Positions 26,795 to 33,402 of a stretch of DNA of 64,000 bases are shown piece by piece. This DNA is from Candidatus Latescibacterota bacterium (GTDB lineage Bacteria; Latescibacterota; UBA2968; UBA8231): positions 4,512,001 to 4,576,000 of the forward strand of contig OZ220089.1 of NCBI GenBank assembly GCA_964291625.2. Direction: 5' to 3'. Within the stretch, counting starts at the first letter, position 1; every line of letters begins with the position of its first letter. The notes under the pieces are model-generated. The model saw only the letters and a list, made by a program, of their open reading frames with translations. It was not told the origin of the DNA and did not search any database. The position numbers were made by a program, and so were the translations under genes.

Positions 26795-26798
<4 letters not shown>

Positions 26799-27247
26799 TC
26801 GGAAGTCCCGCCGAAGGCCGGGTGGAGCAGATCCTCCTCTACCCCGAGCGCCGGGGGCCGGCCCGGGAGTGCGAGGAGGCGGTCGCCGTGGCCGGCGTGG
26901 GGCTGGCGGGGGATCACCGCCGCAACCCGTCCCGCGCCGTCACCCTGCTCTCCGTCGAGGCCTGGGAGGAGGCGATGGCGGCGGTGGGCGCCGACCTGCC
27001 GCCCCGGGCGAGGCGCGCCAACCTCGTGGTCCGCGGCCTCGACCTGGGTTCGCTCGTCGGCCGCAGGCTGCGCATCGGCGGGGCCGAGGTGGCCGTGCGG
27101 GGCGAGACGGTGCCCTGCGAGCGGATGGACCTGCAGCGCGCCGGCCTGCAGGAAGCGCTGAGGCCGGCCATGCGCGGCGGCGTCTTCGGCCCCGTGGAGC
27201 GCAGCGGACCCATCCGGCTCGGCGATGCGGTCTCCGTCGTGGAGTGA
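26795..27247 (+). CDS. MOSC domain protein
   Basis: GLAGD, RAVTL, RRANLVVRG, PCERM, RGGVF...SGPIRLGD. Confidence 0.85.
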
Positions 27248-27251
27248 GGGT

Positions 27252-27280
27252 TTGACATTCTCCGGCAAGGGCGGCATACT
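27252..27280 (+). promoter_or_regulatory. Sigma70-type promoter of the thrS leader
   Basis: TTGACA (27252-57), 17-bp spacer, CATACT (27275-80). Confidence 0.75.
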
Positions 27281-27317
27281 AGATCGCATCGCAGCCATGA
27301 CCGAAGGAGCCACCTGC

Positions 27318-27440
27318 ATGTCCCGGGAGAAGACGACGGCGGACGGAGCATCGCGCCGCGAGACCACCACCACCCCCGGGACGACCACGCCCGTCACGGG
27401 TACCCGTGACCGACATCCGACGGTGGACCCTCCGGGATAA
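27318..27440 (+). CDS. Thr-rich leader peptide (40 aa) of the thrS operon
   Basis: GAAGGAG RBS 8 nt upstream; MSREKTTADGASRRETTTTPGTTTPVTGTRDRHPTVDPPG*; 12 Thr codons; directly upstream of thrS. Confidence 0.85.
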   Translation: MSREKTTADGASRRETTTTPGTTTPVTGTRDRHPTVDPPG

Positions 27441-27463
27441 GCGATTCCCGACCGAAGACTTCC

Positions 27464-27506
27464 GAGAGAGCCCGCTGTCGAATCCGACCGGCAGCGGGCT
27501 TTTCTC
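27464..27506 (+). terminator. Attenuator terminator hairpin
   Basis: AGCCCGCTGTCG(27469-80)/CGGCAGCGGGCT(27489-500) 12-bp stem, 8-nt loop, followed by TTTCTC. Confidence 0.8.
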
Positions 27507-27526
27507 ATGACCCACAGGAGCAGGGA

Positions 27527-29449
27527 GTGAAGATCCGGATCCGCGAACAGGAGGTGCTGGAGCACGAGGGGGGCGGCCACCTCAAGGAGATCCTCCTCGA
27601 GCACGACCGCAAGCTGCTGCGGGAGTTCGTCGCCGCCCGCCGGGGGGAGGAGTGGGTCGACTTCCACACGGAGCTCGAGGCCTCCGACGAGGTCGAGCTC
27701 GTCCCCTGGGAGGCCGACGAGGCGGCGTGGGTCTACCGCCACAGCCTGTCCCACGTCATGGCCCAGGCCGTGCGGCGGCTCTTCCCCGAGGCGCGGCTGG
27801 CCATCGGACCGGCCATCGACGACGGGTTCTACTACGACTTCGACGTGCCCGAGCCCTTCAGCGCCGAGGACCTGGGCCGCATCGAGAAGGAGATGAAGCG
27901 GGTGGTCCGCCAGAACCACCGCTTCGAGCGCGAGGAGGTCAGCCGCGACGAGGCCCGGGACCGCCTCCGGGACGAGCCCTACAAGCTGGAGATCCTCGAC
28001 GAGTTGGAGGACGACGAGTCCCTCACCTTCTACCGCGACGGCGACTTCGTCGACCTCTGCCGCGGCCCCCACGTGCTGAGCACGGGACAGGTCCGCCACT
28101 ACAAGCTGCTCAGCGTGGCCGGCGCCTACTGGCGCGGCGACGAGGGCAACAAGATGCTGCAGCGCATCTACGGCACCGCCTTCGCCAGCCGCGAGGCCCT
28201 CGACGGCCACCTGCGCATGCTGGAGGAGGCGAAGAAGCGGGACCACCGCCGCCTGGGGCGCGAGCTGGAGCTGTTCTTCTTCGACGACGAGGTCGGCCCC
28301 GGCCTGCCCCTGTGGCAGCCGAAGGGGACGGTCCTGATCGAGGAGCTGGAACGGCTGGCGAAGGAGACCGAGCGCGAGGCCGGGTACCTGCAGGTGCGCA
28401 CCCCCCACATCTGCAAGGACTCGATGTTCGTGCGCAGCGGCCACCTGCCCTACTACGCCGAGTCGATGTTCCCGCCCATGGAGATGGAGGGGGTGAAGTA
28501 CTACCTCAAGCCGATGAACTGCCCCCACCACCACAAGGTGTTCGCCTCGGCGCCGCGCAGCTACCGCGACCTGCCCCTGCGCCTGGCCGAGTACGGGACC
28601 TGCTACCGCTACGAGCAGTCGGGGGAGCTCTTCGGGCTGATGCGGGTGCGCTCGATGCAGATGAACGACGCCCACATCTACTGCACCCTCGACCAGTTCG
28701 AGGAGGAGTTCCTCGCCGTCTGCCGCATGTACCTCGGCTACTTCGAGCTCTTCGGCATCGACAAGTACGTCATGCGCCTCAGCACCCACGACCCGGCGGA
28801 TCTCGGGAAGAAGTACGTCGACGAGCCGCAGCTGTGGCTGGAGACCGAGGAGAGGGTGCGCCGCGCCCTGGCCAACGGCGGCATCAACCACGTCGAGGTG
28901 GCGGGGGAGGCGGCCTTCTACGGCCCCAAGATCGACGTCGAGGTCTGGAGCGCCATCGGCCGCGAGTTCTCGATCGCCACCAACCAGGTCGACTTCGCGG
29001 TGCCGGCCCGCTACGGCCTCGCCTACACCAGCGCCGAGGGCGCGGAGGAGACGCCGATCTGCATCCACCGGGCGCCGCTGGGTACCCACGAGCGCACCAT
29101 CGGCTTCCTGATCGAGCACTACGCCGGCGCCTTCCCCACGTGGCTGGCGCCGGTGCAGGCGGTGACGCTGCCCATCGCCGAGCGCCACGGGGAGTACGCC
29201 GAGACGGTCCGTCAGGCCCTGGCCGCCGCGGGTGTCCGTGTCGAGCTGCAGGCCGATCAGAGCCTGAACTACCGCATCCGGGCGGCGCAGAAGCAGAAGG
29301 TCCCGTACATGCTGGTCCTCGGCGACCGCGAGGTCGAGGACGGCAAGGCGGCCGTGCGTCTGCGCAGCGGCGAGAACCTCGATCCCATGGCGGTGGACGA
29401 GGCGGTGGCCCTCATCGCTGGCCGCATCGCCTCGCGGGCCCCGGAATAG
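27527..29449 (+). CDS. thrS: Threonine--tRNA ligase
   Basis: HSLSHVMAQAV, DLCRGPHV, GAYWRGD, KRDHRRLG, KPMNCPHH, AFYGPKID. Confidence 0.97.
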   Translation: MKIRIREQEVLEHEGGGHLKEILLEHDRKLLREFVAARRGEEWVDFHTELEASDEVELVPWEADEAAWVYRHSLSHVMAQAVRRLFPEARLAIGPAIDDGFYYDFDVPEPFSAEDLGRIEKEMKRVVRQNHRFEREEVSRDEARDRLRDEPYKLEILDELEDDESLTFYRDGDFVDLCRGPHVLSTGQVRHYKLLSVAGAYWRGDEGNKMLQRIYGTAFASREALDGHLRMLEEAKKRDHRRLGRELELFFFDDEVGPGLPLWQPKGTVLIEELERLAKETEREAGYLQVRTPHICKDSMFVRSGHLPYYAESMFPPMEMEGVKYYLKPMNCPHHHKVFASAPRSYRDLPLRLAEYGTCYRYEQSGELFGLMRVRSMQMNDAHIYCTLDQFEEEFLAVCRMYLGYFELFGIDKYVMRLSTHDPADLGKKYVDEPQLWLETEERVRRALANGGINHVEVAGEAAFYGPKIDVEVWSAIGREFSIATNQVDFAVPARYGLAYTSAEGAEETPICIHRAPLGTHERTIGFLIEHYAGAFPTWLAPVQAVTLPIAERHGEYAETVRQALAAAGVRVELQADQSLNYRIRAAQKQKVPYMLVLGDREVEDGKAAVRLRSGENLDPMAVDEAVALIAGRIASRAPE

Positions 29450-29451
29450 CC

Positions 29452-30144
29452 GTGTGGAAGGGGCTGCACCGCCAGGCCCGGATCCTGTGGCGTTTCCGCT
29501 TTCACCTGCTCTGTGCCGCCGCCGCCCTGCTGTTGTGGGATACCTTCTGGATCAAGCCCTTCCGGGTCTTCGTGGTCATGGTCCACGAGATGTGCCACGC
29601 CGTCGCCGCCCTGGTCACGGGGGGAGAGGTCCTGGAGATGCGCACCGCCTGGGCCGAGCACGGCTACACCCTGTCCCGGGGCGGCTGGCCGGTGGTCATC
29701 GTGTCGGCCGGGTACCTGGGCTCGGCCCTGCTCGGCGCGGCGCTGATCTGGTCGGGGGTGCTGCCGCAACTGCAGCGGCTGGCCCTGCTCCTGATCGGGG
29801 CCGCGACCCTGGGCATGACCCTGGCCTTCACCCCCGCGGGCGGGATCGACTTCGCCTTCGGCATCGCCGGGGGCCTGGCGCTGATCTGCACGGCCATGTA
29901 CTCGGCGCGGTCCGGGTCGGCCGGGGCGGTGTGGCTGGGGGTGATGCTCTGCCTCTACAGCCTCCACGACTTCCGCACCGACCTGTGGCTCTTCGCCGAG
30001 CGCACCGACGCCGGCATCCTGGCGGCGCACCTCGGCCTGCCGTGGCTGGCCTATCCCATCGCCGCCGCCTGGGTGTGGCTGTCCTTGTGGGGGATGTACC
30101 GGGCCATGGGGTCGCTGGTGAAGCACGAGGCCTCCCAAACCTGA
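29452..30144 (+). CDS. M50 family (M50B-like) membrane metallopeptidase
   Basis: HEMCHA inside a hydrophobic segment, SAGYLG, TDAGILA; several TM helices. Confidence 0.8.
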   Translation: MWKGLHRQARILWRFRFHLLCAAAALLLWDTFWIKPFRVFVVMVHEMCHAVAALVTGGEVLEMRTAWAEHGYTLSRGGWPVVIVSAGYLGSALLGAALIWSGVLPQLQRLALLLIGAATLGMTLAFTPAGGIDFAFGIAGGLALICTAMYSARSGSAGAVWLGVMLCLYSLHDFRTDLWLFAERTDAGILAAHLGLPWLAYPIAAAWVWLSLWGMYRAMGSLVKHEASQT

Positions 30145-30161
30145 AGGAGATCCGATAAGCC

Positions 30162-31946
30162 ATGCGCATGAGCCGTCTCTTCAGCCAGACCCTGCGGGAG
30201 GCCCCGGCCGACGCCCAGGTGGCCAGCCACGTCCTGCTGCTGCGGGCCGGGTACGTCCGCCAACTCGCCAGCGGCATCTTCAGCTACCTGCCCCTGGCGC
30301 ACAGGGCCCTGTCCAGGATCGAGCAGATCATCCGCGAGGAGATGGATGCCATCGGCGGCCAGGAGATCAAGATGCCCGTGGTCCACGCCGCCGACGTGTG
30401 GAAGGCCTCCGGCCGCTACGAGGAGTACGACGAGTCCCTCACCCGCTTCCACGACCGCCACGGCCGCGACATGGTCCTGGCCACCACCCACGAGGAGATC
30501 GTCGCCGACCTGGCCAGCCGCGAGATCCGCTCGTACCGGCAGCTGCCCGCCATGGTCTACCACTTCCAGACCAAGTGGCGCGACGAGGCGCGGCCCACCT
30601 CCGGACTGCTGCGGGTGCGCGAGTTCACCATGAAGGACTCGTACTCCCTCGACGCCTCGCAGGAGGGGCTGGAGGCCCAGTACCGGGCCCACTACCAGGC
30701 CTACTTCAACATCTTCCGCCGCTGCGGCCTGCCGGTACGGGCGGTGCGCTCCGACGTGGGCATGATGGGCGGCTCCGCGGCCCACGAGTTCATGTACCTC
30801 AAGGAGGTGGGGGAGAACACCCTGGCCCTGTGCGGCGCCTGCGGGTACGCGGCCAACACCGAGGTCGCCGCTTTCGCCAAGGCGGCGGCCGCCGAGGAGG
30901 AGCCCCTGCCCCTGGAGAAGGTGGCCACCCCCGGAGCGGCGACCATCGCCGAGCTGGCCGCCTTCCTCGACATCCCCGCGAGCCGCACGGCGAAGGCGGT
31001 CTTCCTGGTGGGCCGCTTCAAGGCCGCCGAGGACGGCCGGGAGTCCGGGGAGCGCCTCGTCCTGGCGGTGATCCGCGGCGACCTCGAGGTCAACGAGATC
31101 AAGCTCGCCAACGCCGCCGGCGCCCTGTCGCTGAGACCGGCCCACGACGAGGAGATCGCCGCCGCCGGGGCGGTGGCCGGCTACGCCTCGCCCTTGGGGC
31201 TGTCGGAGGACACCCTGGTGGTGGCCGACGACTCCGTGGTCTCGTCGCCGAACCTGGTCTCCGGCGCCAACGAGGCCGGGTACCACGTGCGCAACGTCAA
31301 CCACGGCCGCGACTGGCAGGCCGCCGTCGTCGACGACATCGCCCTCGCCGAGGCGGGCCACGCCTGCGCCGACTGCGGCGCCGCCCTGGGCATCGTCCGC
31401 GGCGTCGAGGTGGGCAACATCTTCCAGCTCGGCACCCGCTACACCGACGCCCTGGGCGCCTCCTTCCTCGACGAGCAGGGCCGGGAGCGGCCCGTCATCA
31501 TGGGTTCCTACGGCATCGGCGTGGGCCGGCTCCTCGCCTGCGCCGTCGAGGAGCACCACGACGACAACGGCCTCTCCCTGCCGGTGACCGTCGCTCCGTA
31601 CCAGGTGCACCTCGTCTCCCTGGCCAAGAGCGAGGGGCCGGCCCGGTCCGCCGCCGAGGCCCTCTACGATGAGCTGACCGCGGCCGGCGTCGAGGTCCTC
31701 TACGACGACCGCCCCGAGAACCCCGGCGTCAAGTTCAACGACGCCGACCTCATCGGCTGTCCGGTGCGGGTCACCGTCGGCGACCGCGGGTTGAAGAAGG
31801 GGACTCTCGAGGTCAAGCTGCGCGGCGCCGCCGGCCGGGGCGAGGAGGTGCCCGTGGCCGAGACCTCCGCCCGCGTCCAGGAAGAGCTGGCGGCGCTGCG
31901 GCGGCGGATCGAGGAGAGCGTCGGCCCGGTGGAGTACGCCGACTGA
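30162..31946 (+). CDS. proS: Proline--tRNA ligase (bacterial type with editing domain)
   Basis: MRMSRLFSQTLRE.PADA, LLRAGYVRQ, SYRQLP, GLLRVREF.MKDSYS, EVGNIFQLG, MGSYGIG. Confidence 0.97.
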   Translation: MRMSRLFSQTLREAPADAQVASHVLLLRAGYVRQLASGIFSYLPLAHRALSRIEQIIREEMDAIGGQEIKMPVVHAADVWKASGRYEEYDESLTRFHDRHGRDMVLATTHEEIVADLASREIRSYRQLPAMVYHFQTKWRDEARPTSGLLRVREFTMKDSYSLDASQEGLEAQYRAHYQAYFNIFRRCGLPVRAVRSDVGMMGGSAAHEFMYLKEVGENTLALCGACGYAANTEVAAFAKAAAAEEEPLPLEKVATPGAATIAELAAFLDIPASRTAKAVFLVGRFKAAEDGRESGERLVLAVIRGDLEVNEIKLANAAGALSLRPAHDEEIAAAGAVAGYASPLGLSEDTLVVADDSVVSSPNLVSGANEAGYHVRNVNHGRDWQAAVVDDIALAEAGHACADCGAALGIVRGVEVGNIFQLGTRYTDALGASFLDEQGRERPVIMGSYGIGVGRLLACAVEEHHDDNGLSLPVTVAPYQVHLVSLAKSEGPARSAAEALYDELTAAGVEVLYDDRPENPGVKFNDADLIGCPVRVTVGDRGLKKGTLEVKLRGAAGRGEEVPVAETSARVQEELAALRRRIEESVGPVEYAD

Positions 31947-31956
31947 CGCCCGCGGG

Positions 31957-33402
31957 CTAATTCCGCTCCGCCTCCGGAACCTCGCTGCGCTGGGCGGGCT
32001 CGTAGCCGATCGCCCGCCGGCCGTGGTCGACGTCGTAGAGCGGCCAGTCGCTGTCCGACACCCCGAAGACGATCTCGTACGTCGACCCCGTGTGGGTGAT
32101 GGCCGCCTCGAAGACGCGCACCGCGTCCTCGTGCCCCAGCTGGTGGGGGTGGGCAGGCTGGTCCCGCTCGAGGCTGAAGTTGCCGATGCGCACGCCGACG
32201 AAACGGGTGCCGTGGCGCCAGGCCCAGGTGTGGCCCAGGCCCTCTCCGAAGATCTTGCTGATCGTGTAGAAGGTCTCCGGCCGCGGGAACAGGTCGACGG
32301 TGCGCCGCAGGTTCCGCGGGTAGGGGGAGAGGATGCCGGCGCGGCTGGCGTAGGCGACGCGGGGCACCCGGTTGCGCCTCACCGCCTCCATGATGTGCCA
32401 GGTGCCGACGAAGTTGGAGGACCACACCTCTTCCCAGGGAGAGCCGCCGCTCGGGGTTCCCCCCAGGTGGACGACGGCGTCCACGTCCCGGGTGGCCCGC
32501 AGGCAGGCCTCGAAGTCGCCGAGGGGGGCGGTCACCGTGTCGGTGAGCTCCGGCATCTCCACCCGGTCCATGCCGCGGACCTCGTAGCGGCCCCGCAGGC
32601 CGCGGGCCAGGACGCGCCCCACCTGCCCCGCGGCCCCGGTGATCAGCACCCGGCGGGGCGGCTGGTCCGACAGGGGCTCGGCCGGACCGTCGTCGCCGCG
32701 GAAGGTGCGTTCCGCCTCCGGCAAGCGGGAGATGTCCCGCGGCTCGTAGCCGATCGCCCGCCGGCCGTGGTCGAGGTCGTAGAGGGGCCAGTCGCTGGCG
32801 GAGACGCCGAAGACGATCTCGAAGCCCGCCACGGGATGGGCGGCGGCCTGCTCGAAGAGGCGGACGCAGTCGCCGTGGCTGAGCTGGTGAGGGTGCCCGG
32901 GCCGGTCGCGGTCGACGCTGAAGTTGCCGATGCGGACGCAGACGCACTCCATGTCGAAGCGCGAGGCGTACATGGAGGCCAGCATCTCGCCGAAGAGCTT
33001 GCTGTTGTCGTAGAGGCCGAGGGGGCGCGGCATCATCTCCACCCGGCGCTGAACGCCGTCCGGGTAGAGCCACAGCAGGCCGGCGCGGCTGGCGAAGACG
33101 ACGCGCCGGACCTCTGCCTCCCGGGCCGCCTCGAAGACGTGGTAGCAGCCGATGTAGTTGTTGTTGGCGATCTCCGGCCAGGGCCGCTCGCCGGCGTTGC
33201 CCCCGAGGTGGATGACCGCGTCGACGCCGTCCACGGCGCGGCGGACGTGGTCGAAGTCGCCCAAGTCACCCTGGAGGAACTCGCCGCCGCCCTCGGCGGG
33301 AGGCCGGCGGTCGAAGGCGCGCACCCGGTGGCCCCGGGCTCGCAGACCGCCCACGACACAGGTGCCGACGCGGCCGGAGGCGCCGGTGACGAGCAGGTGC
33401 AT
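31957..33402 (-). CDS. Tandem two-domain NAD-dependent epimerase/dehydrogenase (uronate dehydrogenase-like extended SDR)
   Basis: Two Rossmann starts (LVTGASGRVG, LITGAAGQVG), two YxxSK (YDNSK, YTISK), duplicated VRIGNFS..RD.P.HPHQL. Confidence 0.85.
   Translation of the reverse strand: MHLLVTGASGRVGTCVVGGLRARGHRVRAFDRRPPAEGGGEFLQGDLGDFDHVRRAVDGVDAVIHLGGNAGERPWPEIANNNYIGCYHVFEAAREAEVRRVVFASRAGLLWLYPDGVQRRVEMMPRPLGLYDNSKLFGEMLASMYASRFDMECVCVRIGNFSVDRDRPGHPHQLSHGDCVRLFEQAAAHPVAGFEIVFGVSASDWPLYDLDHGRRAIGYEPRDISRLPEAERTFRGDDGPAEPLSDQPPRRVLITGAAGQVGRVLARGLRGRYEVRGMDRVEMPELTDTVTAPLGDFEACLRATRDVDAVVHLGGTPSGGSPWEEVWSSNFVGTWHIMEAVRRNRVPRVAYASRAGILSPYPRNLRRTVDLFPRPETFYTISKIFGEGLGHTWAWRHGTRFVGVRIGNFSLERDQPAHPHQLGHEDAVRVFEAAITHTGSTYEIVFGVSDSDWPLYDVDHGRRAIGYEPAQRSEVPEAERN

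Follow-up and report, generated by a model that had tools for sequence, protein, structure and literature searches.

We have high confidence that thrS of this Latescibacterota genome is controlled by a classical ribosome-mediated transcription attenuator, which would sense Thr-tRNA(Thr) and probably govern the membrane peptidase gene and proS behind thrS as well. The attenuator is very probably real, conserved and functional, and scarcity of charged threonine tRNA very probably leads to more ThrRS being made; we infer the translation of the leader ORF, termination at the hairpin, the kinetics of the switch and its response to threonine from sequence comparison and folding. Within the window, i.e. 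the whole stretch of 64,000 nucleotides that was analysed, the relevant features are the following.

27252-27280, + strand: sigma70-type promoter, with the -35 box TTGACA at 27252-57 and the -10 box CATACT at 27275-80
27303-27309, + strand: Shine-Dalgarno sequence of the leader ORF, GAAGGAG, 8 nt before the ATG at 27318
27318-27440, + strand: thrL-like leader ORF of 40 codons, 12 of them Thr
27320-27382, + strand: predicted start-codon helix P1, 27320-27 with 27375-82, of putative function
27370-27374, + strand: 5' strand of the protector, CCACC (Thr18-Thr19-Pro20), with its partner GGUGG at 27422-26, from the genus consensus fold
27393-27410, + strand: putative RNA hairpin within the ORF, corresponding to the 18-bp palindrome and nested inside the protector
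27418-27426, + strand: 5' strand of the antiterminator, with its partner at 27472-80, from folding and alignment
27469-27503, + strand: intrinsic terminator, stem 27469-80/27489-500 and U-tract 27500-03
27516-27520, + strand: Shine-Dalgarno sequence of thrS, AGGAG, outside every predicted helix
27527-29449, + strand: thrS, threonine-tRNA ligase with editing (tRNA_SAD) domain (TIGR00418, 650 bits against a cut-off of 384; Pfam)
29452-30144, + strand: M50B-like membrane peptidase gene, probably co-transcribed (PF13398)
30162-31946, + strand: proS, probably co-transcribed with thrS (NF006625, above cut-off)

In the mechanism that we propose, a ribosome would load onto the leader ORF behind RNA polymerase. 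With Thr-tRNA plentiful, it would reach the stop codon and cover or unwind 27418-26, upon which the terminator would fold and transcription would end near 27503. With Thr-tRNA scarce, the ribosome would stall at Thr codons 16-29 and mask the protector strand, leaving 27418-26 free to capture the 5' arm of the terminator (27472-80), and the polymerase would read into thrS; the extra ThrRS would restore charging and thereby close a negative feedback loop. We place the control at transcription because the Shine-Dalgarno sequence of thrS lies clear of all helices.

The original prediction had described here a promoter, a Shine-Dalgarno sequence, a 40-codon ORF with 12 Thr codons that include runs of four and of three, and a terminator, and each was recovered exactly where it had been placed. 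The promoter, with a spacer of 17 nt, matches the consensus at 10 of 12 positions (50 shuffles gave a mean of 0.0 such sites), transcription would start near 27287, and a TTGAC/TTGCAC box lies upstream in 74 of the 75 leaders of the family. The Thr residues occupy codons 6, 7, 16-19, 22-24, 27, 29 and 35 of the leader ORF, those at 16-19, 22-24, 27 and 29 likely being the regulatory ones. A second in-frame ATG at 27297, which has no Shine-Dalgarno sequence, could lengthen the ORF by 7 codons, and in the ORF list the peptide does appear, as had been pointed out, as the tail of a 71-aa ORF (27225-27440). The ORF further upstream (about 26797-27247) gave no Pfam or NCBIfam match at the thresholds used; by eye it resembles what we take to be a MOSC-type protein. 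Of the RNA runs, 8 contained a small share of the stretch, and the assembled contigs of 4 were aligned to it. In a sponge metatranscriptome, one 260-nt contig spans 27189-27449 with one ACC codon fewer, which we count neither way because it starts upstream of the promoter and may be DNA, and because contigs cannot show a 3' end.

The Thr content of the leader ORF stands out within the genome. Twelve Thr codons compare with 5.4 expected, a number that none of 300 dinucleotide shuffles reached, and of the 21,705 ORFs that start with ATG and span 20-60 codons in this genome of 5.9 Mb, it is the sole case with at least 8 Thr within 12 codons. An HMM built from 28 leader homologues matched this locus alone (E 8e-28; next best 0.09), i.e. 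it found no second copy of the leader elsewhere in the genome, and thrS itself was found as a single copy. The leader ends here, and in G002, G004 and G006, in Pro-Pro-Gly-stop (27429-27440), presumably an EF-P-type pause motif, which is not conserved outside that subclade.

The availability of related genomes allowed us to follow the element across its family. We searched 76 family genomes, of which 75 contain the 5' part of thrS, and examined the upstream DNA of all 75, assigning leader ORFs by a rule blind to Thr (the first ATG after the promoter with a Shine-Dalgarno sequence or at the start site, else the first ATG; the promoter was picked by hand in two genomes). The canonical layout, an ATG ORF that stops 20-90 nt before a conserved terminator, was present in 61 of the 75 thrS leaders and in 14 genera, and the terminator stem motif in 70 of the 75. 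The leader ORFs range from 23 to 58 codons, yet the distance from stop codon to terminator is 24-38 nt in 56/61; 24 of them start with a Shine-Dalgarno sequence and 28 are leaderless (52/61 together). At least 5 Thr codons were found in 48/61, with Thr runs of up to 12. Averaged by genus, the leaders carry 6.0 Thr against 2.9 expected (2.06-fold) and exceed the shuffle expectation in 14/14 genera; Ala, Val, Glu and Met likewise lie above the shuffle null, by 1.5-1.7 fold. The sequences are not independent, since 31 of the 61 canonical leaders come from one genus. Among 10 members of the genus, indels are of 3 or 15 nt within the ORF and of 1-2 nt after its stop codon. Attenuation of thrS by Thr-tRNA, as originally proposed from the one sequence, is thus supported by the orthologous leaders, in which the in-frame Thr-rich ORF, the antiterminator strand near the stop codon and the covarying terminator are all retained.

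The element is lost or degraded in 14 of the 75 genomes. The leader is wholly absent from G015, G041, G049 and G050, a foreign gene lies directly upstream of thrS in G046, and the leader ORFs of G007, G012, G024, G044 and G055 have decayed. In four others (G019, G086, G088 and G089; L134, L171, L137 and L142) the leader ORF has been deleted, and the terminator hairpin with its U-tract is kept right behind the -10 box; in G019 the 3' half of the terminator is duplicated. G007 (L126; 92% ThrRS identity) has its -10 box and leader start replaced, with Thr codons, antiterminator and terminator remaining, which reflects either recent decay or an assembly error.

Leaders reduced in this way are of interest for an alternative in which the element senses coupling in general or damps transcription constitutively through a leaky terminator, and the richness in ACC codons comes from pairing with GGUGG. 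Such a reading would account for the terminator remnant that alone is kept in G019, G086, G088 and G089, and for several genera whose leaders are down to 3-4 Thr codons while the helices persist; indeed, 13 of the 61 leaders have fewer than 5 Thr (3-4), most of them not individually significant. However, a need to pair with GGUGG should enrich ACC alone, and the family uses ACG and ACT to a similar extent (ACG 161, ACC 141, ACT 124 and ACA 51). Furthermore, most AC dinucleotides fall on codon position 1 (477/46/83 by reading frame), a 6-10-fold excess of frame 0 over either alternative frame and a sign of in-frame selection on the Thr codons, and 10 of the 61 leaders contain mixed-codon runs of 10-12 Thr. 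We regard this reading as very unlikely.

The terminator of the proposed attenuator is supported by its folding and by covariation. Its 12-bp stem and 8-nt loop fold with -31 kcal/mol (z -5.98; 0/200 shuffles as good); the U-tract is short (UUUUCUC), lies 23 nt before the GTG of thrS at 27527, and a consensus scanner did not call the terminator. For covariation we used an alignment of 29 leaders, made up of G007 and 28 from the canonical set of 61; it excludes the leaderless g14 clade, G070, g9 and g22. In this alignment 98.3% of 287 cells of the terminator stem are paired, and 4 pairs and 17 cells show double changes, which none of 500 shuffles matched.

The claimed antiterminator, 27418-26 with 27472-80, can form, with 9/9 pairs including three G-U. 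Its pairing is well conserved and its covariation is weak: 93.3% of 254 cells are paired (8/500 shuffles) with many G-U-compatible single changes, against 76.6% when the strand is slid by +3 as a control, and double changes occur at 1 pair only, a covariation score reached by 19/500 shuffles. Terminator and antiterminator are mutually exclusive in the folding models. When only the RNA ahead of the ribosome was folded, the antiterminator had a probability of 0.99 with any of codons 14-29 in the A site and of 0 with codon 32 or a later one there; codon 29, the last Thr of the cluster, is at the edge of the permissive range. The 61 leaders have 477 Thr codons, of which 460 are within the permissive zone, a result that is partly built in because a stall further upstream leaves a longer piece of RNA unoccupied. 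With the ribosome at the stop codon, the terminator arm is released in 52/61. An equilibrium model that includes the upstream RNA was noisy, giving antiterminator values of 0.1-1.0 over the Thr stalls with the 3' end at 27484 and mostly below 0.3 with the 3' end at 27492. It did not reproduce superattenuation, because the antiterminator is at 0.9 in the naked RNA, and when the terminator arm was free to choose its partner, the best one was close to the stop codon in only 32/61 leaders (in this genome it is at 27333-43). We thus do not accept equilibrium folds of the whole leader as proof that it switches.

Behind thrS, we found no promoter-like or terminator-like site within 27520-32200, and 54 of the 66 family genomes compared have proS no more than 9 kb behind thrS, so that ProRS may ride on a Thr-controlled transcript. 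This linkage, and the absence of an internal promoter-like site here, would also suit an attenuator that senses both Thr and Pro on behalf of a thrS-peptidase-proS operon, the more so as the Thr run of this genus is interspersed with Pro codons and two g22 leaders contain 9 and 11 Pro. Family-wide, however, Pro codons are as frequent as expected (3.88 observed, 3.94 expected, ratio 0.98) and exceed expectation in 6/14 genera, and the leaders of genomes with a distant proS have 7/42, 2/36 and 3/42 Pro, similar to the mean of 0.096 for linked ones. Dual sensing is thus very unlikely. The two Pro-rich leaders belong to G045 and G047 (L165 and L139; 11 and 9 Pro, 4 Thr each), in which the terminator is preceded by an additional hairpin block; if Pro is sensed anywhere in the family, these would be the first candidates.

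The original prediction had further proposed a protector in which Thr codons pair with GGUGG, and here the outcome is divided. In the consensus fold that RNAalifold gave for 10 members of the genus, CCACC at 27370-74 pairs with GGUGG at 27422-26 (47/50 cells paired, no double changes) and encloses the palindrome hairpin. When this sequence is folded on its own, GGUGG pairs instead with CCACC at 27310-14 and not with the Thr codons. As a fixed helix the protector is unsupported family-wide, its best partner overlapping a Thr codon in 13 of 28 leaders versus 11.4 expected.

The perfect 18-bp palindrome at 27393-410 was found as described. In the 10 genus members a G-C pair becomes G-U in 5/10, the loop changes, and one double change turns U-A into C-G; covariation of the hairpin is not significant (169/500 shuffles). 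Because a DNA palindrome is not kept through the G-U-compatible changes in 5/10, the sequences argue for an RNA hairpin rather than a DNA operator.

Stable hairpins, one with GGU in its loop, could also suggest E. coli-type autorepression, in which ThrRS binds tRNA-like leader hairpins and blocks ribosome loading, the ORF being incidental; for E. coli thrS this mechanism is established, as set out in excerpts of PMC6542539. However, our alignments contained no conserved anticodon-like stem-loops beside the ribosome-binding site of thrS: the segment 20-60 nt before the thrS start is unconserved, the hairpin loops vary, and the palindrome is genus-limited and lies about 120 nt from the Shine-Dalgarno sequence. 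In-frame synonymous Thr runs and a U-tract would also be left unexplained, and we regard such an operator as barely credible here. The chance of a T-box, which controls synthetase genes in Firmicutes (PMC1262725, in excerpt), or of a DNA operator at a palindrome that is perfect in this genome, is next to none, as there was no Rfam match at gathering score in the window and none to the T-box model RF00230 in the genome (a control matched in 5/14 genomes), while the palindrome decays in half of the genus members and is some 105 nt beyond the putative transcription start.

Returning to the Thr attenuator, its leader start codon appears to be engaged in a helix of its own. Most other leaders with a UTR pair their AUG region with the stretch directly 5' of the Thr run, and in this genome the partner is shifted to 27375-82. 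Pairing in P1 is found in 82.7% of 150 cells (2/500 shuffles), 8 cells showing double changes (4/500). In the terminated RNA, pairing of the AUG exceeds 60% in 20 of 33 UTR-bearing versus 8 of 28 leaderless leaders, and the mean duplex energy is -10.9 versus -5.3 kcal/mol, a gap that is due in part to the shorter arm offered by leaderless starts. On these models, P1 may act as a gate that prevents re-initiation, or else as a pause hairpin. Were it a gate, the helix would bury the leader start codon and close at the Thr run, so that only a pioneer ribosome would load co-transcriptionally, and re-initiation would be shut behind a stalled ribosome and on released leader RNA, avoiding futile use of Thr-tRNA and ribosome queues; the leaderless versions without the helix would have arisen separately in two genera. 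Similar self-blocking has reportedly been seen in the E. coli trp leader. The attenuators of the family would then also form a natural tuning series, with 1-12 consecutive Thr, Shine-Dalgarno-led, leaderless or lost, and with proS also under Thr-tRNA control. That they combine a conserved start-codon gate with such a series is a tentative reading, which we hold to be possible but rather doubtful. In any case, the 75 orthologous leaders provide a set in which to study how an attenuator is tuned by the length of its Thr run, by a leaderless start and by a start-codon helix.

In E. coli, thrL comprises a leader ORF with Thr codons, an antiterminator and an intrinsic terminator before the thr operon, and trpL and pheM work by the same leader-peptide mechanism. 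Lopatovskaya et al. are said to have listed thrS in 2010 among genes with predicted attenuators. The element described here shares with thrL (RF00506) the Thr-codon leader ORF, the antiterminator and the terminator, but it controls thrS and not thrABC, shows no Ile enrichment (0.95) and encodes a longer peptide (23-58 codons); there is no detectable homology to the Rfam Thr_leader, which scored 12.5 bits (E 8.6) against a gathering score of 55. With the E. coli thrS operator and the Firmicutes T-box it has in common the gene and the signal, charging or supply of tRNA-Thr, whereas our searches here revealed no anticodon-mimic operator and no T-box. The general mechanism is laid out for trp in part of PMC4615214, and synthetase genes with attenuators appear in excerpts on E. 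coli pheST and, as predictions, Streptomyces trpS and leuS (PMC1262725) and on a Bacillus hisS paralogue (PMC2965389); as far as these excerpts go, all share the cognate-codon leader with terminator and antiterminator, and differ in amino acid, gene and phylum. The thrL proposed upstream of thrS in Streptomyces lividans is likewise a Thr-codon leader peptide and is leaderless like 28/61 of the family leaders. As excerpted, it has 18 codons, 2 Thr and no U-tract, with termination unclear to its authors (PMC8079986), whereas the leaders of the family described here have as many as 13 Thr, an antiterminator and a terminator that covaries.

The novelty is modest. A literature search for Latescibacterota and attenuation returned only ecology papers among the matches listed, and no description for this lineage was found in the texts searched; a thrS leader peptide had already been proposed in S. 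lividans (PMC8079986, in excerpt) and synthetase attenuators were known (PMC1262725, in excerpt). This is a textbook mechanism in a lineage for which we found no record, and the concept is unchanged. Alongside the operator of E. coli and the T-box of Firmicutes, it would add a third mode of thrS control, one for which an uncultured family of the FCB group offers unusually clean comparative support.

Outside the family, a Thr-rich ORF was found in 0 of the 13 class-mates examined, which had at most 2 Thr in 12 codons (L018 and L019 were left out for a misplaced start, and G030 has no thrS). Among the best 80 thrS loci in GTDB, for which starts were guessed and of which about 6 had no usable upstream DNA, at least 7 Thr in 12 codons occurred in two Latescibacterota loci only, and none of the loci from other phyla had more than 5. 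The ThrRS type found here shares 53-74% identity with its counterparts in Bipolaricaulota, Chloroflexota, Marinimicrobia and Elusimicrobiota, and only 43-49% with the ThrRS of three other sampled families of the same class. Those three families (L020-L030, L040 and L041) have a thrS leader of a different type, of about 110-150 nt and with no Thr ORF, which shares a segment TTGC-N(1-2)-GAGG and, ahead of the start, a hairpin with CGCG and a U-tract; L022 and L023 gave no Rfam match, and these leaders are possibly another regulatory RNA.

A genome scan yielded 226 terminator-like sites before long ORFs, and from these 37 loose leader candidates, of which three besides thrS match the amino acid of their own gene, a context that fits an attenuator before thrS. 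If borne out, together with thrS they would extend classical attenuation to Latescibacterota. One is a candidate Trp attenuator before trpE, an ORF with WWW and another W followed by a terminator (G000:C1:1706215-1705995, minus strand; L188), and another a candidate Cys attenuator, with seven consecutive Cys codons and a strong intrinsic terminator before cysH, encoding a PAPS/APS reductase (G000:C1:4278833-4279072; L187). The third is an Asn/Asp-rich leader of 30 codons with a long-U-tract terminator before aspS (G000:C1:3778881-3779073; L186).
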